DNA from: an uncultured Chloroflexia bacterium
Lineage (GTDB): Bacteria; Chloroflexota; Dehalococcoidia; GIF9; UBA5629
Reading direction: 5' to 3'
Assembly: GCA_963775935.1 (NCBI GenBank)
Contig: CAVZKR010000005.1
Coordinates: 209,211-273,210 of the forward strand
Length of the DNA stretch: 64,000 nt
The translations under genes were made by a program, and so were the position numbers. Within the stretch, counting starts at the first letter, position 1, and each line of letters begins with the position of its first letter. The notes under the pieces were generated by a model. That model was not told the DNA's origin and did no database searches. It saw only the letters and a list, made by a program, of their open reading frames with translations. Below, one piece after another: positions 39,901-50,371 of the stretch.

Positions 39901-41103
39901 ATGAAATACGACTTTGACAGAGTAATCGACCGCAGAAACACCGATTCGGCAAAGTGGGGAAAAGTAGAAACGTTATTCGGTGACAAAGATGTATTGCCGA
40001 TGTGGGTTGCTGACATGGATTTGCCTATTGCCAGGCCGATAACCGAGGCTCTCAGGAAACGGACGGAACACCAAATATACGGCTATGCGCTGCCGCAGCC
40101 ATCGACAATCGAGGCAGTGGTAAACCGGGTACAGAAAAAATACCAATGGAAAATCAAACCCGAATGGGTGGTATTTACCCCAGGAGTGGTCCCTGCCCTC
40201 CATGCCGCGATCAGGGCGTTCAGCCATCCCGGCGATGAGGTCATCATCCAGGGACCGGTCTACTATCCCTTCTGGTCATCAATAAAGAACTGCGGCTGCC
40301 AGGCAGCGAACAACGAGCTTAATCTTATTGATGGGCATTACCGGATGAATTTTGAGGACCTGGAAAGAAAGTTTCGAGTACATAAGGATGGCATGATGCC
40401 ATTGCCCTCTCGTATCCGGCTGATGATTCTGTGCAGTCCCCACAATCCAGTGGGGAGAGTCTGGACTAAGGAAGAATTGACCAGGGTGGGGGAAATCGTA
40501 TTAAAACACGGCGTCTTAATGGTCTCTGACGAAGTCCACTGTGAATTACTTTACCAAGGTTCCAGGCACACACCGTTTGCCTGTCTATCGAAGGAGTTCG
40601 AACAGAACTCCATTACCTGCATGGCACCAAGCAAAACGTTCAATCTGGCAGGGCTGAATGTCTCCTCAATCATCATACCTAACCGTCAAATCAGGGAGAA
40701 ATTCAATGCTGCCAGGTTAGGCATTCAATCAAGCCCGAATGTTTTTGGGTATGTTGCCCTGGAGGCTGCTTATCGGTACGGTGATGAATGGCTGGAACAG
40801 CTGCTGGAATACCTTCAGGCAAACCTGGAATTTTTGATGGATTGCTTTGAAAAGAAAATACCGAAGATTAAGGTTATCCGCCCGGAAGGAACATATCTGG
40901 TCTGGCTGGACTGTCGGGATTTGTTCATGAGCCCTGAGGAGCTGAGGACTTTTATGAGGACAAAGGCTAAGGTGGGACTTGATGACGGATACCTCTTCGG
41001 AACAGGTGGGGCTGGTTTCCAGAGAATCAATATCGCCTGCCCCCGTGCTACGCTGGAAGAAGCGCTCCGAAGAATCGAAAACGCTATATCTTCAATTACA
41101 TAA
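39901..41103 (+). CDS. patB: PLP-dependent C-S lyase, MalY/PatB family (class I/II aminotransferase fold)
   Basis: MKYDFDRVIDRRNTDSAKWGK... N-terminus and ...SKTFNLAGL (PLP lysine context) are typical of MalY/PatB. Confidence 0.75.
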   Translation: MKYDFDRVIDRRNTDSAKWGKVETLFGDKDVLPMWVADMDLPIARPITEALRKRTEHQIYGYALPQPSTIEAVVNRVQKKYQWKIKPEWVVFTPGVVPALHAAIRAFSHPGDEVIIQGPVYYPFWSSIKNCGCQAANNELNLIDGHYRMNFEDLERKFRVHKDGMMPLPSRIRLMILCSPHNPVGRVWTKEELTRVGEIVLKHGVLMVSDEVHCELLYQGSRHTPFACLSKEFEQNSITCMAPSKTFNLAGLNVSSIIIPNRQIREKFNAARLGIQSSPNVFGYVALEAAYRYGDEWLEQLLEYLQANLEFLMDCFEKKIPKIKVIRPEGTYLVWLDCRDLFMSPEELRTFMRTKAKVGLDDGYLFGTGGAGFQRINIACPRATLEEALRRIENAISSIT

Positions 41104-41205
41104 GCTCGCGTCCTTGTTTGAGATTATTCTTCACCTTCAGGGATGGTGACTCCCACGGAATAGCCCCATAGTATACTTGATAAATTGTGAACTTGTCTAA
41201 AAAGT

Positions 41206-41673
41206 ATGAATTACACAAAAAGTAAAAAATCTGCACAAAAAGTCCACAAATTACACAGGCAAGTTCCAGCTAAAGTTACTGCTTATGTAGATGAAGGTAT
41301 TAAGGAATTAGTAGAAGTATTAAATACAATTCCTAATGTTTGTACCATCGAAAGTTGTGAAGGTAACACTGTAATCCCTGCACGTGTTTTATTGGATTAT
41401 GGGGTAAATTATGATACTGACGAATGCGATAGACACGCTCTAGTAGAATTTGCCGATATATTATGGGAAACAATTAAGAATTCGGAACTTGAAGGTAGTG
41501 TTCCTGCTGGAATGATAGAATGTGTCACTCTATCTTTAGAATGGAATCCTAGATACCATCCCACATTATGGATAAATGTTAAGAAGCAATATTTAAATGA
41601 TTTAGTTAATATCCTACGTCCCTTATGTAACGAGTGCAGACTGAACAAACAGCAATCCAAGAGTTTGCATTAA
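41206..41673 (+). CDS. Hypothetical protein (155 aa)
   Basis: Long ORF in AT-rich DNA with no recognisable domain and a weak RBS. Its 3' end overlaps the convergent ORF 41606-41851. Confidence 0.4.
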   Translation: MNYTKSKKSAQKVHKLHRQVPAKVTAYVDEGIKELVEVLNTIPNVCTIESCEGNTVIPARVLLDYGVNYDTDECDRHALVEFADILWETIKNSELEGSVPAGMIECVTLSLEWNPRYHPTLWINVKKQYLNDLVNILRPLCNECRLNKQQSKSLH

Positions 41674-41851
41674 TAGATGAACCATCATTATGAGGATTAA
41701 CAAACTTATATGTACTATGCAAAAGACGTTTACAAGGATGCTTGTGGTCGTGTTGAAAACTAATACACATGCAACGTCCTTGTGCAAGAGTAAGGATTCT
41801 ACGTTTTTCTTCTACCTCAGTTCCATGTGGGACTTTAATAAAGTCAGACAT
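41606..41851 (-). CDS. Hypothetical small Cys/His-rich protein (81 aa)
   Basis: AGGAGTG RBS about 9 nt upstream of the ATG at 41851. Last ORF of the minus-strand operon. The 68-nt overlap with 41206-41673 makes one of the two doubtful. Confidence 0.35.
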   Translation of the reverse strand: MSDFIKVPHGTEVEEKRRILTLAQGRCMCISFQHDHKHPCKRLLHSTYKFVNPHNDGSSINANSWIAVCSVCTRYIRDVGY

Positions 41852-41912
41852 ATTTTACTTCACTCCTACTGGTCTAATTCCTGCCTTATCCTAACTATGT
41901 AGTTGTTGTCTA

Positions 41913-42077
41913 TCACCCAATAAATATAAAAATCACAGAAATTATTATTGCGATAGCAGCCAGAACTAAGCTTACTAAAGCTATTTTATAACTTCTCTTT
42001 GATTCCGATTTTAATTTTAGCAGTATTTCTTTCTCTTCTGGTGGCATTTGTGCAACCCCATTAATGTATTCTGTCAT
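41913..42077 (-). CDS. Small single-TM protein (54 aa), absent from the supplied ORF track
   Basis: Hand-translated: MTEYINGVAQMPPEEKEILLKLKSESKRSYKIALVSLVLAAIAIIISVIFIFIG*. Strong GGGGGAGG RBS 9 nt upstream. Confidence 0.55.
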   Translation of the reverse strand: MTEYINGVAQMPPEEKEILLKLKSESKRSYKIALVSLVLAAIAIIISVIFIFIG

Positions 42078-42140
42078 TACTTAAATACCTCCCCCTTTTT
42101 CTGTGTTAATCCCATGAGCTTATATGATACATAAACCTAG

Positions 42141-42770
42141 TTAATATTTACCATTTGACCAATCATGCAATAACCACGACCGCACTGCTTTTCCTTGTGA
42201 TTTTTTATGGTGATATGGGCAAAGGCAAATAAGATTATTAATGTTATTGTTTGCTGGATTATTGTCTATATGATGTATTTCCAGATAACTTGTTTTATCA
42301 CAACCTTTCCATTGGCATCTACTGTTTGCCCTTGAAAAAACTTGTCTCTGTATTTCAACTGGTATAGGTGTACGGCTTTTTTTGCCATTTTTATTACTTT
42401 TCCTTAGTACCCTATTTATAATTTTCCAAGCTAAAATACTAATTGCACAAATAGCAGCAATAGTAATAATAATTGGTATCCAATTCTGTTTAATCCATGC
42501 AGGTAATAACGGAACTACATAAATCCCAAAAAGACAACCAAAGGCTATAATTATGAGAACTATATCTGCTGTTCTTCTTGATGCCGTACTTACCTTTTCC
42601 ATTACAAAACGAATACCAACAAAAGCTAAGATAATGATGGCGATTACCGTTAACAGTATTGTTAGATTATTACTTATCCAATTAGAAGCACCTGGTATAA
42701 AAAACCATGCAATAAAAGCAAGGATTGCTATCAATATGATAATGGCTAAGAGTTGATTACTTCTCCGCAT
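42141..42770 (-). CDS. Membrane-anchored HNH endonuclease domain protein
   Basis: Four predicted N-terminal TM helices, then a C-terminal HNH region: RCQWKGCDKTSYLEIHHIDNNPANNNINNLICLCPYHH. Confidence 0.75.
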   Translation of the reverse strand: MRRSNQLLAIIILIAILAFIAWFFIPGASNWISNNLTILLTVIAIIILAFVGIRFVMEKVSTASRRTADIVLIIIAFGCLFGIYVVPLLPAWIKQNWIPIIITIAAICAISILAWKIINRVLRKSNKNGKKSRTPIPVEIQRQVFSRANSRCQWKGCDKTSYLEIHHIDNNPANNNINNLICLCPYHHKKSQGKAVRSWLLHDWSNGKY

Positions 42771-42802
42771 AATCCCCTAAACTGGTGGAGGTTTCCTTTT
42801 CC

Positions 42803-43213
42803 CTACATAAAACCTGGAGCAATTAAATCTAAACCATCAATATGTTGGAAATGCCTTCCATTATTAGTAGCTAATGAACATTCGTGCCTTATGGCACATG
42901 CAGCAATCCAACAGTCGGCATACTCAATAGTAAAACCCATTTTGTCACATTTACATTTAATCTCTGCCCATTTCAAACAAACCAAATGGTCATAAGGTAG
43001 TACTACATAATTTTTTAAATGATTCTCTAATTTAAAAATTCTTTGATTCCCCCACATAGCTTTGTAAGCACCGTAATATAATTGTGCAACTGTCATAAAC
43101 GCCACAGCTAAACTTCTATGTGATAAACGTGGGAGGAAATAGGCAGCTTGCGTATGTCGATTAAAAATGTACGAAACTACATCAGTATCAACTACTATTC
43201 TATTGTCTGCCAA
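42803..43213 (-). CDS. PIN-domain ribonuclease (VapC-like toxin)
   Basis: N-terminal IVVDTDVVSYIF acidic motif and PIN-like length. TTG start with an AAGAGGT RBS, 14 nt after the upstream gene's stop. Confidence 0.75.
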   Translation of the reverse strand: MADNRIVVDTDVVSYIFNRHTQAAYFLPRLSHRSLAVAFMTVAQLYYGAYKAMWGNQRIFKLENHLKNYVVLPYDHLVCLKWAEIKCKCDKMGFTIEYADCWIAACAIRHECSLATNNGRHFQHIDGLDLIAPGFM

Positions 43214-43227
43214 AGTGAATTTACCTC

Positions 43228-44178
43228 TTAATTACGTGAACTTCTTACTGCTTCAAAAAATGTGTCGAAGTCAGTGTCTTCAGGCCAATCGGATGCCATC
43301 TCGTGCAAATCACCTACAGGATAAACAGATTGTTCCCTAGCTAATTCCTCAAATGTTTTCTCTCTCCAAAATGATGACAATGGAACTTGTGGAATATCAG
43401 TAAGCGAAAGTTGTGCAATCGGCTCTACATCCTTAACATGTAATAATGCCATTTTACCAGTATCAAAATCATACTTGGCATCGCCTTTAGCCCTTATAAA
43501 TTGTCTCGGATATCGCATTATTTGTTCTGCTATATCTTCATCAAATGTGCAACCGATAGGCTCTCCCGTTGAAGGTTGTAAGCGGCATCTTAATTTGTCT
43601 TCCTCTACATCTAACATCAATAATCTACCTTCAACTGTAGTATAAGAAAATTGATATCTATTAATTCTATTTATTATCTTTTCTCTTACAGATGACTCAT
43701 ATTTCAATTTTCGGTGTCCAAAGCTGCTATTTGAATTAATGTAGATATTATCTACTCCTCTATCAATAATTTTACCTGCATCTCGTAATGGTATTAATAT
43801 ACTTTGGTCAACTTCATCTGGTACTTGTTTGTCTTTAGCGATTGCGTTTATAGATACAATTAACTTGTCTGTAGCCTCTTCACCAATATCCCATTGTGGA
43901 AATTGTTGCCCATTTCTACGAAGGTCTAACCCTATACGGAAACATCCACGCCTGACTGAAACAATTTCCAATGCAGACAATATTTGCATTGCCTTGGTTG
44001 GTCTTCCCCTTTTTGTTGCAGTATCTTTTTGCAACGACTTGTGAATTAAGCGGTCAATAGCAATACTTATATTGGATATAAAAGTCGATAGGTCGTCAAA
44101 TAGAATTGTATTGTTCCGAATAGCTGAACCCTCAAATTTAAAGCGTAGAAGCGGTTTTTTGTTGAAAGACTTGTTCAT
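43228..44178 (-). CDS. Hypothetical 316-aa protein with antitoxin-like C-terminal tail
   Basis: AGGAGGG RBS. The C-terminal ...FWREKTFEELAREQSVYPVGDLHEMASDWPEDTDFDTFFEAVRSSR resembles the toxin-binding tails of PIN-associated antitoxins. The N-terminal ~260 aa are unrecognised. Confidence 0.6.
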   Translation of the reverse strand: MNKSFNKKPLLRFKFEGSAIRNNTILFDDLSTFISNISIAIDRLIHKSLQKDTATKRGRPTKAMQILSALEIVSVRRGCFRIGLDLRRNGQQFPQWDIGEEATDKLIVSINAIAKDKQVPDEVDQSILIPLRDAGKIIDRGVDNIYINSNSSFGHRKLKYESSVREKIINRINRYQFSYTTVEGRLLMLDVEEDKLRCRLQPSTGEPIGCTFDEDIAEQIMRYPRQFIRAKGDAKYDFDTGKMALLHVKDVEPIAQLSLTDIPQVPLSSFWREKTFEELAREQSVYPVGDLHEMASDWPEDTDFDTFFEAVRSSRN

Positions 44179-44314
44179 TTTGAATTTGCCCTCCTATTCC
44201 AGACATGATAAAATATCTACTGATGGAGGGTATTTTAAGCTAGTACCAATAACTTAAAATCATAATCAGAGCCTAAGACAAATAAAACTGTTCTTTTAAC
44301 TGATATTATCAAAG

Positions 44315-44340
44315 AAACCCTACTATTACAAGTAGGGTTT
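44315..44340. terminator. Perfect 10-bp hairpin (AAACCCTACT-ATTACA-AGTAGGGTTT) with flanking T/A runs
   Basis: Immediately downstream of the HTH gene stop (44343) on the minus strand. It separates that gene from the 44178 operon. Confidence 0.55.
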
Positions 44341-44342
44341 TG

Positions 44343-44579
44343 TCATTTTAGCTTATTTCTTGGTTTCTTATACCGCTTTTTCTTCGGGATACGTTTTCTT
44401 TTACTTAACTGGTCTAATAGACTGAGAACTGATTTTGAATTATTCGGATTGCGTTCTCTAACCTTCCATTTCTGTACAGCATTAACTGTTACTCCTAATT
44501 CATCTGCTAATGCTGCTAATGTCCAGCCTTTTTCCTGTAGTTCGGCAAGCTTATCTTGTATTTCAGTCATTACTACCAT
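44343..44579 (-). CDS. Small helix-turn-helix protein with basic C-terminal tail
   Basis: GWTLAALADELGVTVNAVQKWKVRERNP is an HTH segment, with a KKKRYKKPRNKLK tail. Divergent from the transposase gene. Confidence 0.65.
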   Translation of the reverse strand: MVVMTEIQDKLAELQEKGWTLAALADELGVTVNAVQKWKVRERNPNNSKSVLSLLDQLSKRKRIPKKKRYKKPRNKLK

Positions 44580-44720
44580 ACTAACATACTCTGTATGCTG
44601 TTGTCAATACGTAATAATCAAAAATAATTGCAATTTTTTCTGAAAATATACCCGAAACCTATTGACAAAACTATACAGTGTATGTTATTATAAATACAGA
44701 ATAAAGTATGGAGTAGTGAA

Positions 44721-45956
44721 ATGGATATATGGCAGGAAAGAGGAATAGCAATAGCTGAATCGAATCAAGTAGAGAAAAATAAATTAGGTTGGAAAGTGTC
44801 TTCACAATCTGGCAACGGAACGTATATTGTTAATATTGATAATGAACCATTCTGTACCTGCCAGCACTTTGAAGAGACTCATGAAAAATGCCAGCATATT
44901 TACGCTATCGAATTTATAGAGCAACAGGAAACAAGAGAGGATGGTACTACTACATGCACTAAATCAATGAGAATAACTTATAGCCAAGTATGGCCAGTAT
45001 ACAATATGGCTCAACGTAACGAGAAGAAAGAGTTTATGAGACTTCTATACGATTTATGCCAGACCATACCACAGCCAGAATATATTTTTGGCAGACCACG
45101 ATTACCTTTATCCGATATGGTATTTTGTGCAGCTTTGAAAGTATATTCAACGGTATCTGGCAGACGTTTTATGACAGACTTGGAAACTGCTTTTGAAAAA
45201 GGTTATATCTGCCAGTTACCACATTACAACTCAGTATTCAACTATCTTGAAGATGAAAGCTTAACTCCACTATTAAAGAGACTGATTGAATCAACGAGTA
45301 ATCCACTAAAGCATATTGAGACATCTTTTGCTGTAGATTCAACAGGGTTTTCCACTTGCAAATTTGACCGCTGGTATGATACGAAATATGGAAAAGAACG
45401 AAGCCAGAAGAAATGGCTCAAGGCTCACATAATGTGCGGTACTACCACTAATACAGTGGTTAGCATTGAAATCACGCCAAGTAATGTAAATGATTCTGTA
45501 ATGCTTAAGCCGCTAGTAGATAATACAGTAAAGCGATTTAATTTAGCTGAGATAAGTGCCGATAAAGCCTATGCCAGCGATAATAACCTTAATATCATCA
45601 ATGATGCAGGTTCTGTACCATACATACCTTTTAAAATGGGGGGTTCTACTGGTCGTGGTGTTAGAAAGTCTGGCTCTGCAATCTGGACGAAGATGTATCA
45701 CATGTTCATGTTTCATCAACAGGAATTCATGCAACATTATCACAAGCGTTCCAATGTGGAATCAACATTTGCCATGATTAAAATGAAGTTCGGTGATGCC
45801 ATAAGAAGCAGAGGACATGTCTCGCAAGTAAACGAATTGCTATTAAAGGTACTTTGCCACAATATCTGCGTATTGATACAGTCAATTTACGAATTGGGGA
45901 TTAGTGATACTTTTTGGGCAGAAAATGCGGTTGCACAAAAAGCAAGTCAGAATTGA
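44721..45956 (+). CDS. DDE transposase (IS4/IS5-like) with N-terminal SWIM zinc finger
   Basis: SWIM-type motif CTCQHFEETHEKCQHIYA. Candidate DDE residues in AVDSTGF, ISADKAY and SNVESTFAMIKMKFG. Confidence 0.75.
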   Translation: MDIWQERGIAIAESNQVEKNKLGWKVSSQSGNGTYIVNIDNEPFCTCQHFEETHEKCQHIYAIEFIEQQETREDGTTTCTKSMRITYSQVWPVYNMAQRNEKKEFMRLLYDLCQTIPQPEYIFGRPRLPLSDMVFCAALKVYSTVSGRRFMTDLETAFEKGYICQLPHYNSVFNYLEDESLTPLLKRLIESTSNPLKHIETSFAVDSTGFSTCKFDRWYDTKYGKERSQKKWLKAHIMCGTTTNTVVSIEITPSNVNDSVMLKPLVDNTVKRFNLAEISADKAYASDNNLNIINDAGSVPYIPFKMGGSTGRGVRKSGSAIWTKMYHMFMFHQQEFMQHYHKRSNVESTFAMIKMKFGDAIRSRGHVSQVNELLLKVLCHNICVLIQSIYELGISDTFWAENAVAQKASQN

Positions 45957-46031
45957 CACTTTTTAGACAAAGTGATAAATTGTATAGTAAGCTTTACAAT
46001 TAGTACAGTAAACTATACAGGAGGCATCGGA

Positions 46032-46412
46032 ATGCAAATAAGTAAATTTCGTATTTACAAGGCGATCATAGCGGGCGGGCTGGGCATTGCTGTGGCAATT
46101 GCGATTGCTACTGACACCGCCATAATCGCGCTGGTGGCGGTTGTTGTAGCTATTGTACTTGCGTTTATTCTGGAACGTAGCAACAAAGAGATAGTACGGG
46201 ATGAGCGAATCTCGCAGATCAGCGGGAAAGCTGCTTCTGCTTCTTTCTATAGCGTGCTTATACTGGCGGCAGTCGCCTCATTGGGCATCGCCCTTTTCCG
46301 CAGCCAGTTGCCGGAAAACGTTGTTTTTTTTGGTGCTATCATGGGCTATTTTATCTGTGTTGCATTATTACTGCATATGTGTTTTTACGCCTATTTCAGC
46401 CGGAAGCTATAG
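46032..46412 (+). CDS. DUF2178-like membrane protein
   Basis: 4 TM helices, typically paired with the downstream small XRE regulator. AGGAGG RBS upstream of the ATG at 46032. Confidence 0.6.
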   Translation: MQISKFRIYKAIIAGGLGIAVAIAIATDTAIIALVAVVVAIVLAFILERSNKEIVRDERISQISGKAASASFYSVLILAAVASLGIALFRSQLPENVVFFGAIMGYFICVALLLHMCFYAYFSRKL

Positions 46413-46422
46413 GGTGCAACAG

Positions 46423-46659
46423 ATGAAAAACAGGCTAAAGGTATTTCGTGCCATGCACGACCTCACACAGGAGGCGCTGGCCGATCAATTACGCGTGACC
46501 AGGCAGACGGTCGTCTCCATCGAAAATGGTAAATACGATCCTTCCCTGCCGCTTGCTTTCCGTATCGCCAATCTTTTTAATGTAAAAATTGAGGATGTCT
46601 TTTTATGCGAAGGTGAACCGGGTGAATTTCATGGCTATCCACCCATGTCTAAAAAGTAA
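46423..46659 (+). CDS. XRE-family HTH transcriptional regulator (78 aa)
   Basis: MKNRLKVFRAMHDLTQEALADQLRVTRQTVVSIENGKYDPSLPLAFRIANLF is a classic Cro/C1 HTH. Confidence 0.85.
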   Translation: MKNRLKVFRAMHDLTQEALADQLRVTRQTVVSIENGKYDPSLPLAFRIANLFNVKIEDVFLCEGEPGEFHGYPPMSKK

Positions 46660-46903
46660 AGCCTATGTATACAGGGATACCATCTTCGCAGTTGTTACCC
46701 CATGAGGCCAAACCTATAGGCCCCTGGGTCGGGGGTCAGCCTTGGAGAGCCGTGGGAGACCTAGGATAAGCCGTATCGATAATAAGCTAAATTTCTTATA
46801 CTAAAGCATGTAATGAGGTTTTATGTATCGGATGCAATGGATGTACGAAGTAACAACAAATTGATATCATAACTATAGAGGCTATTGGAGGGAGGTGCCG
46901 ATA

Positions 46904-48307
46904 ATGAGTAATCAACCCTCGGTATTCATTTCATCGAATGTCAAGGAATTTCGTGACTTACGTTCAGCAATAGCTTTTACTTTGCGTGAACAAGGATTTA
47001 CTGTGTATCAATCCGAAGCATCTGATTTTGATGTAAAAGGTGATCGTTCTGCAATCGAAGAATGTTTTACTAACATTAACAATAGTGATTTCTACATACT
47101 AATTGTGGGCAATAAAAAGGGTAATCTATTTGAAGATGGAATTTCTATAACGCGCCAAGAATATAGGATTGCGAGAAGTACTTTTATGTCACTTAAGCGA
47201 CCACGATTGTTCTTTTATTTACGCCGTGAAACTGAAATGGCGCTACAAAGTAATCAACATGATCTATCAACAACAGATATTGATGATTCAGACCATCTAA
47301 AATCATTTATTAATGAAATTCAAAATCCGAACATTGCTGGTGCCCCTAATTTTCTAACTCGTTTTTATGATTTCAATGACCTAATGCAATCTTTAGTTGT
47401 AAAGATGAACTTAGGCAGAAACCTTTCCGAAAAGCTAATTCGGTATTCTTTGTTATCAGAATTGCTATCAAATCTTGCACATATTTCAAATCGTAGTGGT
47501 ACTAGCATATGGCTGCCTCATCATTTTATAAGCAAAGTAAGAGAACGAGTGAAGATATCAATAGCTGATATTGATAAATACGTTAATGTCAAGAGTGATT
47601 TGGCTTTATCATTGGGTATGGCACTTGTTACAAGGACAAGGGGAAATGATTTAAGTACAAAAATTATCAAAACGGCTCTAGACGAAGGGTTATTTTTAAT
47701 TTTCGATCATACGACTGGTAGTCTAAAAGAATCTGAGTTGCATTCTGCTATCAGACAAATTATTGAAGATATCGAGTCATTCCGTACTCTCGATTATTCT
47801 GGATCGGGAAAAGATTGGAGTGCGGATATTGCTGTGGCTGTATCAGCAAAAAGGAAGGGAGATGCACTAGTAATTCCTTGCATGGACTTATCTTTGGCTT
47901 TTGCTTATTATGATCGATTGGAAAATATATTTAACGGACACTTGGCATTTTGTCGTGTATTACTTGGTTTGGATGAGCAAATAAAGCCGTATAAACGACA
48001 ACCACTTACAGTTTGGGGAGATACTGAAGACCACCAGATGAGGAAAGAGAAGGTCTCGGAGGCGGAAATATCACATCTTATTCAAAACAACATATGGCCA
48101 CTGGGAACAAAAGTCCCCAGAGACGTTTACGGAGCTAGCAGAGAAGAACAAATAAAGACTGTTAAAGATAAGATGCTATCGATTCTAGGGGAAGCCGGTA
48201 TTGATAGTATTCAATTCAAGGAAACAATGGAAAAAGCTGCCATAAATTATTTGGATAAAAATGCGGTCGCTCCAGAGGAAGGTATTCAGAATTTAGATAA
48301 TATCTGA
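46904..48307 (+). CDS. DUF4062-domain protein with uncharacterised ~350-aa C-terminal region
   Basis: N-terminus SVFISSNVKEFRDLRSAIAFTLREQG...SDFYILIVGNKKG...ISITRQEYRIA fits the DUF4062 pattern. GGAGGGAGG RBS 8 nt upstream of the ATG at 46904. Confidence 0.65.
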   Translation: MSNQPSVFISSNVKEFRDLRSAIAFTLREQGFTVYQSEASDFDVKGDRSAIEECFTNINNSDFYILIVGNKKGNLFEDGISITRQEYRIARSTFMSLKRPRLFFYLRRETEMALQSNQHDLSTTDIDDSDHLKSFINEIQNPNIAGAPNFLTRFYDFNDLMQSLVVKMNLGRNLSEKLIRYSLLSELLSNLAHISNRSGTSIWLPHHFISKVRERVKISIADIDKYVNVKSDLALSLGMALVTRTRGNDLSTKIIKTALDEGLFLIFDHTTGSLKESELHSAIRQIIEDIESFRTLDYSGSGKDWSADIAVAVSAKRKGDALVIPCMDLSLAFAYYDRLENIFNGHLAFCRVLLGLDEQIKPYKRQPLTVWGDTEDHQMRKEKVSEAEISHLIQNNIWPLGTKVPRDVYGASREEQIKTVKDKMLSILGEAGIDSIQFKETMEKAAINYLDKNAVAPEEGIQNLDNI

Positions 48308-48491
48308 ATACTATACAATGAATTATTGTTCCTCTTTCTCAAAATAGTGACTGTATAGGATCCAAGTTCATTAGGTCACTCCAGAACTAAGCACTAAACT
48401 CCCGAGAGGTAAATGTACTGACCTCCAACAACGAAGGTCATCCTGGTTAGCCATTGGACTCTTAGAATGTCGCCTTTTTTCAGGTAATGTT

Positions 48492-48935
48492 TTAACTAAT
48501 CCAGTTTAAGGCTACTGCTGCAGTCAGAAGAGGATAAGCAATAATTAATAAGAATACCGATATACCAAAAAGAATCCATGCTAATTTGGTTTTCTTTTTC
48601 CCAAACTCCTTGTTATCTTTGGTGCTTAGCCTATTTGACCAGACTGTACAGATGCCTGCAACAATGAAGAGTGTGAATGCCGAAATTAACCAATTTCCTA
48701 CGTAATTCAAACATAGAATTGAACATATCCCAGCCAATACAAGCAAACCACCTACAATGAATATAACATATGATAGTATTTTAAGTGTTTTTCTTAATTT
48801 TTCTTGATTTTCTATTTCCATAAGTTTTTCTTGTCTTGATGTAACTATTCCCTGAATTAATAGATTAACAGAAAAAACTGCAAGTCCTATGCCAATGTTT
48901 TTAAAGTGTTCAGCTATAATTCCTATGAGTTCCAT
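48492..48935 (-). CDS. Hypothetical 4-TM membrane protein
   Basis: AGGAGGG RBS, four hydrophobic helices. Convergent with the DUF4062 gene. Confidence 0.55.
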   Translation of the reverse strand: MELIGIIAEHFKNIGIGLAVFSVNLLIQGIVTSRQEKLMEIENQEKLRKTLKILSYVIFIVGGLLVLAGICSILCLNYVGNWLISAFTLFIVAGICTVWSNRLSTKDNKEFGKKKTKLAWILFGISVFLLIIAYPLLTAAVALNWIS

Positions 48936-49277
48936 TCCACTGTCCCTCCTTTTATGCCTATTCTATCATCTAGTTTAGACATATCAATATAGATATTCTA
49001 AAAATGTATACTTGATGCAATTTTTCAAAGCAGCAGAATAGGGGCATGTTTTAGAAGGCATTATCCCCAATATTACATTCTTTCTTTGGGATTGGATGGT
49101 CTGTGATCGGCTGTATCGGGATAAACTTTGATATTATCCAAATATATGAGACACCAAACTTACTATTTGGCTTAGATCCACTACCATTTTATTTGCGTTA
49201 GTATCTATAAGCGATATAGGGCAATTGTAGTAGGCTTGAGGTCGCTTCACAGCGGGCGCCGGAAGTCTTGAATTAGG

Positions 49278-49320
49278 TGGTGGGCTCGGTAGGTTTCGAA
49301 CCTTCAGCCAATCGTTAGAC
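49278..49320 (-). repeat. tRNA 3' fragment (T-arm, acceptor CGAGCCC, A, CCA), no 5' half
   Basis: The reverse complement reads ...GAAGGTTCGAAACCTACCGAGCCCACCA. The upstream part does not fold as anticodon or D arms. Confidence 0.5.
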
Positions 49321-49341
49321 CATAAAACCTTGAAAATGAAA

Positions 49342-49377
49342 AAGCCCTCGGCGTTGAAACCGGGGGCTTCCTTTTTC
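49342..49377. terminator. Bidirectional rho-independent terminator downstream of hicAB
   Basis: Stem AAGCCCTCGG/CCGGGGGCTT, 8-nt loop, T-tracts on both strands. Confidence 0.55.
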
Positions 49378-49378
49378 A

Positions 49379-49412
49379 AGATTTGGTAGCGGGGGCTGGA
49401 TTTGAACCAGCG
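49379..49412 (-). repeat. 34-nt direct repeat copy A: 3' end of an initiator-like tRNA-Met (T-arm + acceptor + CCA)
   Basis: Identical to 50037-50070. Confidence 0.85.
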
Positions 49413-49425
49413 CACGTGCGAGAAA

Positions 49426-49617
49426 TCACACTTCGATTTTTACCAATTCCTCTTTATCTTTGATCTCAAAAGGTGTATTGAGCATATCTTCAGCGCCAAT
49501 TTTTAATGATTCTATTAGCTTTTCCTTGCTCTTTTCCTGGGCGTTTACTCCTGGCAAATCAATAAGCCAGCCGATCCACCAGTCATCACTTTTTTTAATT
49601 ACTGCTCTATATTGCAT
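49426..49617 (-). CDS. hicB: HicB family antitoxin
   Basis: MQYRAVIKKSDDWWIGWLIDLPGVNAQEKSKEKLIESLK fits the HicB N-terminal fold pattern. Overlaps the hicA stop by 11 nt. Confidence 0.75.
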   Translation of the reverse strand: MQYRAVIKKSDDWWIGWLIDLPGVNAQEKSKEKLIESLKIGAEDMLNTPFEIKDKEELVKIEV

Positions 49618-49810
49618 TGCGAACCCCCTTATCCATAAACGGAATATCCAAGTCCCGGCATATTTTTCTGGCAAGCTCATCGACAATTTCACTATGCCGC
49701 GGGACTTCAGTTCTACATTTCCCTTTCTTGTAGATACTATGTCTTCTGCCCTCTCTCAATAGAAAAGCGCCATTATCGATAAGATAGCGGACAAGTTCCT
49801 TTCTTTTCAC
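49607..49810 (-). CDS. hicA: HicA family mRNA interferase toxin
   Basis: MKRKELVRYLIDNGAFLLREGRRHSIY...VPRHSEIVDELARKICRDLDIP is a typical HicA sequence. Confidence 0.8.
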   Translation of the reverse strand: MKRKELVRYLIDNGAFLLREGRRHSIYKKGKCRTEVPRHSEIVDELARKICRDLDIPFMDKGVRNAI

Positions 49811-49997
49811 GAAAGATGCTTACAACTATTTTTCTATATTATACATCGAGATGTAGGCAATTTCACAGGTAATGATTTCATGAAGTTAGCATCAATTCGG
49901 GCATAGTGCTTTTTATTATAGAAACGAAGGCAGGGCATTTCTGGTCTGCCTTTAATATACTAATAAGATAAGGTAGTCGGAGTCCTCCTTGAACTCC

Positions 49998-50032
49998 GAG
50001 ATTGCCACGTCGCTTCGCTCCTCGCAATGACA
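49998..50032. repeat. REP-like element (translates IATSLRSSQ*), copy 2
   Basis: GAGATTGCCACGTCGCTTCGCTCCTCGCAATGACA. About 27/35 identity to the reverse complement of 25540-25574. Confidence 0.55.
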
Positions 50033-50041
50033 ATTGAGATT

Positions 50042-50091
50042 TGGTAGCGGGGGCTGGATTTGAACCAGCGACCTTCGGGTTATGAGCTCGA
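50042..50091 (-). repeat. Initiator-like tRNA-Met (CAU) 3' half, copy B (anticodon arm to CCA), 5' half not recognisable
   Basis: Reverse complement: TCGAGCTCATAACCCGAAGGTCGCTGGTTCAAATCCAGCCCCCGCTACCA. This is close to the recalled E. coli tRNA-fMet 3' half. No complementary 5' acceptor or D-arm lies upstream. Confidence 0.65.
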
Positions 50092-50371
50092 TTGGATCAG
50101 GCGCTACCATCCTCTACTCAGCATCACATGTTCTCCACTGCTCGCCGCAGAGCGAGCAAATTGCTATGTGGCACACCGGATAAGGTCATGGAAATAGCAG
50201 TGGTGGCAGCGCTCCCTGATTAACTGATGCCTATGCTAAACGAGCAATACTAATCCAACCGCCCTGACAGCGTGAAGCATGGCATGGTCAGCCTGGATGT
50301 TGATCATTTGCAACGATTTCTGTGATGTTGTAACGTTAAGATTATCCACACTATACGGATAGTAAGCTTGC

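Follow-up and report, generated by a model that had tools for sequence, protein, structure and literature searches.

A two-gene cassette of an uncultured Chloroflexota bacterium pairs a PIN-domain protein with a putative modular antitoxin scaffold

A stretch of 64,000 nucleotides (nt) from an uncultured Chloroflexia bacterium (GTDB lineage Bacteria; Chloroflexota; Dehalococcoidia; GIF9; UBA5629), taken from contig CAVZKR010000005.1 of assembly GCA_963775935.1 (positions 209,211 to 273,210, forward strand) and hereafter called the window, carries a conserved pair of genes for a protein of 316 amino acids (aa) and, directly after it, a protein of the PIN family. An earlier reading of the same DNA, here the original prediction, had grouped this pair with three further open reading frames (ORFs) on the same strand, for a membrane-tethered HNH protein (TM-HNH; TM, transmembrane) and two small products of 54 and 81 aa, into one toxin or defence operon. 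Here we show by comparison of related loci that the conserved unit is a 1.54-kb cassette of two genes (44341–42800, minus strand, in window positions) and not a five-gene operon. We propose, with a probability of roughly 0.65, that this cassette is a type II toxin–antitoxin (TA)-like module built on a modular and promiscuous antitoxin scaffold.

In the mechanism that we favour, an upstream hairpin would shield the cassette from upstream transcription, and a –35 box and extended –10 element would start its own transcript. A C-rich stretch of the leader would then pair with the ribosome-binding site (RBS) and throttle translation of the first gene. The C-terminus of the 316-aa protein, about 48 residues long, would dock and neutralise the PIN protein, as suggested by the tail tracking the toxin. 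The 255-residue body, composed of a new N-terminal domain (N-domain) and an OB-fold, would act as a promiscuous scaffold that carries other tails for other toxins and, more speculatively, probably regulates or senses through nucleic-acid binding.

The boundaries of the cassette emerge from 53 related loci obtained by scanning species-representative genomes and metagenomes. Their sources are Dehalococcoidia, Acidobacteriota and metagenomes (the named genome records are metagenome-assembled genomes of Dehalococcoidia/Chloroflexota and Acidobacteriota), and all window proteins were compared with them by tblastn. Adjacency was counted among the loci that have the window's type of tail and at least 300 nt of downstream sequence (n = 35). 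In 34 of these, a homologue of the 316-aa protein is directly followed by a PIN of the same clade, with 15–36 nt between the aligned segments of the two; four loci (L064, L065, L066 and L067) have a 4-nt gene overlap. The lone exception, L040, has lost the PIN that would follow its scaffold gene, and in L003, a Dehalococcoidia chromosome, an insertion of about 1.7 kb interrupts the PIN gene (L003:6951–9075). The TM-HNH, 54-aa, 81-aa and upstream helix–turn–helix (HTH) genes occur in no related locus that carries the pair except L012, which is another assembly of the window's own sequence. The original prediction had proposed to look elsewhere for joint occurrence of the 316-aa, PIN and TM-HNH proteins, and only the first two travel together. 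Because they co-occur and the other three ORFs never do, we take the pair to be the conserved unit.

The DNA alignment leads to the same limits. With the closest relative that has usable flanking DNA, L067 (72% protein identity), blastn gives a single match of 1,552 nt, which runs from the 5′ arm of the upstream hairpin at 44341 to the PIN stop codon at 42800; beyond that stop codon L067 has a convergent gene and no HNH gene. An all-against-all comparison of the ORFs flanking about 50 loci found no recurrent third gene, and what repeats in the flanks is limited to scattered transposases and a small KGG-type protein. The contexts themselves differ: copies lie between the genes for SHMT and for CTP synthase, next to an IS1 transposase, with a phage-type integrase and ImmA/XRE genes, or inside a type I restriction–modification (R–M) operon. 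In the last case (L058:4001–5696, and L059 alike), a scaffold homologue, a PIN gene and a 102-aa gene are placed between hsdM and hsdS and are followed by an Mrr-like gene.

The arrangement that had suggested a single operon is itself real. The five ORFs share one strand and one AT-rich island, and their gaps measure 14, 32, 63 and 61 nt in order. The claim that each has its own RBS holds for four, which are well placed (AGGAGGG 10 nt ahead of the ATG of the 316-aa ORF, AAGAGGT 8 nt ahead of the PIN TTG, GGGGGAGG 10 nt ahead of the start of the 54-aa ORF and AGGAGTG 9 nt ahead of that of the 81-aa ORF), but not for TM-HNH, where GGGGA stops 2 nt short of the ATG and makes a weak site. A terminator scan found no terminator-like site between PIN and TM-HNH. 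Nevertheless, with the last three genes missing from every other pair-carrying locus and with homology to L067 ending at the PIN stop codon, it is highly improbable that all five form one multi-gene toxin or defence operon. Relatives of TM-HNH also have other neighbours (one a downstream 219-aa ORF, another an upstream 52-aa ORF), and the two small ORFs have no match in family libraries or in the fetched loci except L012. Judging from these comparisons, TM-HNH and the two small ORFs have no relation to the pair, are poorly conserved and lie downstream of it by chance. For annotation, the lesson is that close spacing of genes on one strand of a mobile island is not evidence of a functional operon.

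Table 1 Features of the cassette and its neighbourhood (window positions, unless a locus handle is given)
Feature	Position (nt)	Residues	Strand	Remark
316-aa ORF	43228–44178		–	ATG start
136-aa PIN ORF	42803–43213		–	TTG start
209-aa TM-HNH ORF	42141–42770		–	
54-aa ORF	41913–42077		–	
81-aa ORF	41606–41851		–	
N-domain of 316-aa protein	43648–44178	1–177	–	unrecognised fold
OB-fold of 316-aa protein	43420–43647	178–253	–	
Linker of 316-aa protein		254–268	–	low confidence
Tail of 316-aa protein	43231–43374	269–316	–	putative toxin-docking role
Upstream hairpin	44315–44340		–	upstream cassette boundary; perfect 10-bp stem AAACCCTACT/AGTAGGGTTT
–35 box TTGTAA	44326–44331		–	within hairpin loop
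Extended –10 TGATAATAT	44303–44311		–	hexamer TAATAT at 44303–44308, 17 nt after –35
Structured leader	44179–44302		–	about 125 nt
Hairpin P2	44233–44242 / 44250–44259		–	
Hairpin P3	44225–44230 (CCCTCC) + 44189–44194 (GGAGGG)		–	inner stem 44201–44218
Tail-bearing proteins other than scaffold homologues	L009:5416–6153; L010:5416–6153; L054:1192–1989; L044:755–1297; L011:5731–6153; L048:325–771			

The argument for an antitoxin role is carried by the C-terminal tail of the 316-aa protein, a segment of about 48 aa with the motif FWxxKxFEELAxEQGVxPxxxxxxLxGGWPEDxDFDxFxxAIRSxR. The original prediction had likened the last ~45 aa to the tails of PIN antitoxins. This likeness gains support in two ways: the tail recurs on unrelated proteins encoded ahead of the same PIN clade, and it is exchanged together with the toxin. 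The same tail terminates phosphoribosyltransferase-like (PyrE-like), dCTP-deaminase-like (1.8e-17), VRR-NUC-like (a weak match) and Zn-ribbon proteins, as well as very short peptides. Just downstream of the phosphoribosyltransferase-like and dCTP-deaminase-like proteins and of one Zn-ribbon protein lies a PIN of the window's clade, directly 3′ of the tail-bearing gene in L009, L010, L011 and L054. For the VRR-NUC-like loci and the remaining Zn-finger protein, whose contigs (L044, L045 and L048) are short, the tblastn comparison revealed no PIN.

Conversely, many scaffold homologues align to the profile over positions ~5–260 alone and carry other tails. A tail of the form '...SGxVGxWxDRxDIxDSxxFARxLRE' is followed downstream by a different PIN clade, 23–26% identical to the window's, and one of the form '...FRRGWxEAMSGKxRPIADLWD' by ParE/RelE toxins. 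Because tail and toxin swap together, the tail appears to be a toxin-specific element that docks the PIN protein. In the ParE/RelE-linked branch the last 30 residues align with the C-terminal 30 positions of the NCBIfam RelN model (NF050107; 8e-6), which indicates that the tails are antitoxin segments borrowed from elsewhere. The likeness to RelN is confined to that sister branch, and the window's tail matches no curated family.

A published precedent for such a layout is Panacea (PanA, DUF4065), a group of hyperpromiscuous antitoxins in which one globular core occurs with different toxin families (PMC8832971, PMC10440598); in one example it is the C-terminal helices, and not the globular core, that are predicted to make the toxin contacts (PMC10440598). 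The scaffold described here resembles Panacea in that a conserved core is reused with different toxins, as seen from the joint swaps of tail and toxin. It differs in having no sequence relationship to Panacea, no DUF4065 domain in the 316-aa protein and a different fold content; it has only three documented putative partners, two PIN clades and ParE/RelE.

The scaffold itself belongs to a large and unannotated family. The 316-aa protein has no Pfam (E ≤ 0.1), NCBIfam or PHROG family match, and 15 diverse relatives likewise gave no Pfam match at E ≤ 0.01 and no NCBIfam family. Its 86 close cluster representatives, each of about 316 aa, are all unannotated, and an exhaustive profile search recovered at least 1,139 representatives of 50%-identity clusters at E ≤ 1e-3, with 399 at E ≤ 1e-10. 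Searches of plasmid, phage and IMG/VR collections returned no relatives. The window's protein retains all the residues that do not vary among the other 29 aligned homologues. An AlphaFold2 model (mean predicted local distance difference test score (pLDDT) 72) divides the protein into an alpha/beta N-domain (~10–176), a five-stranded barrel with an inserted helix (178–253), a low-confidence linker and two short C-terminal helices.

The Foldseek comparison that the original prediction had suggested was informative for one part of this model. Against the PDB, the barrel alone was matched (E 4e-4 to 3e-3), to the anticodon-binding OB-folds of Lys/Asn-tRNA synthetases, the mitochondrial single-strand-binding protein (SSB) Rim1, YgiW and RPA32. 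The N-domain, by contrast, found no match even when modelled by itself (pLDDT 78, predicted template-modelling score 0.75), the best hit having an E-value of 0.07 and a TM-score of about 0.2. Separately, a profile search of PDB sequences gave a marginal relationship to Nse1 (E 0.002), which we did not use.

The second gene encodes a PIN domain of the VapC type, as had been proposed: the 136-aa protein matches Pfam PF01850 at 6.4e-15 (56 bits; cut-off 23.6). NCBIfam VapC models also match, with scores far under their cut-offs, and VapC chains in the PDB match at 2e-9 to 8e-6 (3zvk, 6nkl and 3tnd at 2e-9 to 9e-7). The protein is closest to the VapC group that cleaves tRNA-fMet, whose known endonucleases include PDB 3zvk and 3tnd. 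In an alignment of 39 PINs, D9, D100 and N118 never vary and D11 hardly does. Position 44 (codon 43082–43084), which corresponds to the catalytic Glu (E42/E43) of characterised VapCs, is Glu in 25 of the 39 and Gln in 14, namely the window and 13 relatives. A neighbour-joining tree places at least six Glu/Gln toggles, all within the clade nearest the window; they could reflect attenuation or tolerance. Another PIN toxin lost its toxicity when D6 and E43, its predicted catalytic residues, were substituted (PMC10440598). A separate observation concerns Acidobacteriota relatives (L005:6963 onward, L037 and L038), in which the PIN frame continues without a stop into sequence that by eye resembles a response-regulator receiver.

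The substitution at position 44 raises the alternative that the window copy is a decaying or domesticated remnant, its PIN catalytically dead (Q44) and without toxin function. The loss of the PIN in L040 and its interruption in L003 would fit such a course. We nevertheless consider a remnant unlikely: both ORFs are full length, the 316-aa protein keeps all the residues invariant in its other 29 homologues, and the promoter, leader and RBS pairing are intact. Furthermore, Gln stands at this position in 14 of the 39 otherwise intact PINs, in several branches, which suggests that it is tolerated or selected.

Upstream, the cassette appears to bring its own expression signals. The original prediction had noted a perfect 10-bp hairpin that insulates the genes from the HTH gene before them; the hairpin is present and proved to be part of the cassette. 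Its loop holds the –35 box and its 3′ arm forms part of the 17-nt promoter spacer. The same layout of hairpin, –35 and –10 is kept in L013, L014, L024, L025, L026, L027, L064 and L067 and persists across the upstream regions of loci with just 50–60% protein identity. In the seven loci whose spacer was checked by eye it measures 17 nt, and the –35 in the loop reads TTGTAA, TTGTCA or TTGCCA. The stems vary in sequence while complementarity is kept, as in L013 (ATACCCCG/CGGGGTAT), L025 (AGCCCGATTA/TAATCGGGCT), L027 (AGACGCTTGGG/CCCAAGCGTCT) and L026 (AAGTGCCTGAC/GTCAGGCACTT), and a T-rich run often follows. As a part of the cassette, the hairpin probably combines the roles of terminator and promoter. 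In the window and in 16 of the 19 related loci examined, the element TGnTAnnAT precedes the start codon by 123–137 nt, and in a 17th, L023, by 95 nt; a generic promoter scan did not flag the extended –10 site at its threshold. Since the window encodes RpoD, reasoning from sigma-70 promoters and Shine–Dalgarno (SD) sequences applies.

The leader between promoter and start codon is predicted to fold. RNAalifold, run on a MAFFT alignment of 17 leaders, found compensatory changes in 7 of the 10 pairs of hairpin P2, and the folds of most leaders have z-scores of about –2 to –6. In single-sequence minimum-free-energy folds the SD is partly or fully paired in nearly all 17 leaders. Its partner is the C-rich stretch of P3 in about 15 of the 17, and at least four SD positions are paired in about 13. 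The two sides change in step, with a GGAGG-type SD met by a CCTCC-type partner and a GGGGG-type SD by a CCCCC-type one. No Rfam family matches the leader. More speculatively, it may be a target of the OB-fold protein or of the PIN RNase.

VapBC is functionally the nearest known system to the cassette. Both have a PIN/VapC-like second gene, an upstream partner that is coupled to it or overlaps it, the order antitoxin then toxin (found here in the 34 loci noted above), a partner C-terminus that behaves as a toxin-specific element, and a patchy, mobile distribution. Of VapB itself the cassette's partner shares only the gene order and the toxin-specific C-terminus. In place of an AbrB, ribbon–helix–helix, Phd/YefM or HTH domain it has the unrecognised N-domain and the OB-fold. 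The PIN differs as well, having Gln for the catalytic Glu in this copy, His for the fourth acidic residue across the family, and NCBIfam VapC scores below cut-off.

Several of these differences weigh against a TA-like module. At 316 aa, the partner is 3–4 times the usual size of VapB (about 70–90 aa), and Pfam, NCBIfam and Foldseek reveal no recognisable type II antitoxin DNA-binding domain in it. Taken alone, the window's type of tail matches nothing in the PDB, Pfam or NCBIfam, and its AlphaFold2 confidence is low. The acidic set of the window PIN is incomplete: D9 and D100 are present, Gln44 occupies the catalytic-Glu position and His121 the fourth acidic position, the latter being His in 37 of the 39 PINs. 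Because Gln44 replaces the catalytic Glu, the window PIN may be weak, attenuated or inactive. Finally, with no terminator after PIN, downstream co-transcription is possible in this genome, and with it read-through from PIN into TM-HNH.

Some of the same features fit a different role, in which the 316-aa protein would be no antitoxin at all but an RNA-binding adaptor that brings a PIN RNase of low toxicity to specific RNAs, within a regulatory or RNA-processing complex. An OB-fold would suit such an adaptor, as would the repeated Glu/Gln toggling and the His at the fourth acidic position. A docking tail on a PyrE-like phosphoribosyltransferase and a dCTP-deaminase-like protein would be odd for antitoxins, and some copies lie between housekeeping genes. 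This alternative is nonetheless quite unlikely, given that sister branches of the scaffold pair with classical ParE/RelE toxins through a RelN-like tail, that the distribution is patchy and mobile with transposases and integrases nearby, and that the tightly coupled genes stand in the order usual for type II TA modules.

Under the TA-like reading, the body of the 316-aa protein could have a wider function. We tentatively suggest that the N-domain and OB-fold form an undescribed, widespread and promiscuous antitoxin or sensor scaffold with exchangeable C-terminal docking peptides, whose OB-fold would bind the cassette's own leader or the single-stranded DNA or RNA of an invader and so time the release of the toxin. 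This idea is less probable than not. If true, PIN-docking peptides grafted onto metabolic and defence-type enzymes would point to a general 'toxin-on-a-leash' wiring principle.

We agree with the original prediction that the composition matches no named system. The PADLOC search that it had suggested gave a weak match of the 316-aa protein (residues 8–259) to the candidate PDC-M32A at 1.3e-8 (32 bits), and none for the PIN protein. PDC-M32 is a two-gene cassette (FAM_01821>>FAM_00608) and one of 145 untested candidates nominated through 'guilt-by-embedding' in known defence systems (bioRxiv 10.1101/2024.01.29.577857). The cassette resembles it in having two genes, in the weak matches of the 316-aa protein and its relatives to PDC-M32A over the N-domain/OB region (1e-8 to 3e-10), and in the location of one scaffold relative inside a type I R–M locus. 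It differs in that the match is remote (true PDC-M32A members score about 1e-153; PMC12429752) and in that the PDC-M32A models have about 375 positions. PADLOC matched neither the window PIN nor the partner toxins of four other branches to PDC-M32B.

This resemblance bears on whether the pair is an anti-phage abortive-infection system, in which the N-domain/OB-fold body would sense phage nucleic acid or protein and free the PIN RNase. Beyond the PDC-M32A match, and the way in which such candidates were nominated, several observations are in keeping with it: the insertion between hsdM and hsdS beside an Mrr-like gene, the similarity of the OB-fold to those that bind single strands or tRNA anticodons, and the DUF4062 and HicA-like genes of the window's island. 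However, PDC-M32 is itself only a candidate and no partner toxin seen here matches PDC-M32B; searches of the phage, plasmid and IMG/VR collections found no relatives; several copies have housekeeping genes on both sides and no defence genes nearby; and the defence context is anecdotal, coming from one R–M locus. A defence role for the cassette is possible, and we regard a dedicated abortive-infection system as doubtful.

Should the TA-like model hold, the cassette would be a second case, after Panacea, of a large globular antitoxin core that serves unrelated toxins by means of swappable tails. Its scaffold family escapes Pfam, NCBIfam and most defence finders, and the lineages that carry it, Dehalococcoidia and Acidobacteriota, are experimentally almost unexplored. 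Its small size (1.54 kb) and defined limits, with an insulated promoter of its own and an RBS-masking leader, make it a compact test object, suited to asking how TA and defence modules control translation of the antitoxin and whether an OB-fold can sense.

The genes downstream of the cassette were examined in their own right. The 209-aa protein was correctly described as a membrane-tethered HNH protein with four TM helices: hydropathy gives four hydrophobic segments, and the C-terminal HNH domain shows the motif with its Cys pairs (C..C...HHID..P.NN..NL..LC..HH). Pfam HNH_3 scores 23.6 bits, under the cut-off of 24.8, and fifteen PHROG HNH-endonuclease families match, down to 5.4e-9. The protein is extremely rare: a collection of 5.8 billion protein clusters yielded only three relatives, each on a very short contig, and neither a PIN nor a 316-aa gene was detected on the readable sequence of these three contigs. 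The 219-aa neighbour of one relative looks by eye like an IS110-family transposase and has no Pfam match.

Hydropathy likewise bears out the description of the 54-aa product as a TM peptide, with one hydrophobic segment at its C-terminus. The 81-aa ORF is rich in Cys and His and has no family, PDB or phage match; for it and the 54-aa ORF, the search covered family libraries and fetched loci, and no database-wide homologue search was made. We considered the 81-aa ORF as a degenerate HNH protein and rejected this: BLASTP against TM-HNH was insignificant, no PDB match was found and the Cys/His likeness is an impression only. At its 3′ end it overlaps that of a convergent 155-aa ORF (41206–41673), which has a weakly TYW3-like N-terminus, by 68 nt (41606–41673), and because of this overlap one of the two may not be a real gene.

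The cassette lies in an AT-rich island (41100–50120), with a GC content of 0.34–0.37 at 41–46 kb, 0.45 at 46–47 kb and 0.35–0.36 at 47–49 kb, against about 0.50 outside (38–41 kb and 50–51 kb). The mobile character ascribed to this island is upheld by its low GC, an IS5-family transposase with a SWIM finger and a DUF4062 protein, but the reported hicAB pair is less secure: the HicA-like ORF (2e-5) falls just under the Pfam cut-off and the putative HicB has no Pfam match. The island ends by a weak tRNA-like match (50045–50118, minus strand; Rfam 33.8 bits, not called by ARAGORN), which suggests that this is a genomic island associated with a tRNA gene, even though it shows no integrase.

Two inverted repeats were also observed within the island. 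The first, of 39 nt (41174–41212 and 45951–45989; 74% complementary, with a 13-nt perfect core TTGTCTAAAAAGT), flanks everything from the 155-aa ORF to the stop codon of the transposase. We did not adopt it as the ends of a composite element, as roughly 0.4 seeds of that length are expected by chance and the window has no second copy. The second, of 35 nt (44578–44691; 83% complementary), separates the HTH gene from that of the IS5-like transposase. In both of its arms there is an outward-facing, near-consensus sigma-70 promoter (TTGACA, 18 nt, then TATTAT or TAGTAT, with a TG), and the repeat forms a symmetric divergent promoter that is probably controlled by the 78-aa HTH protein.

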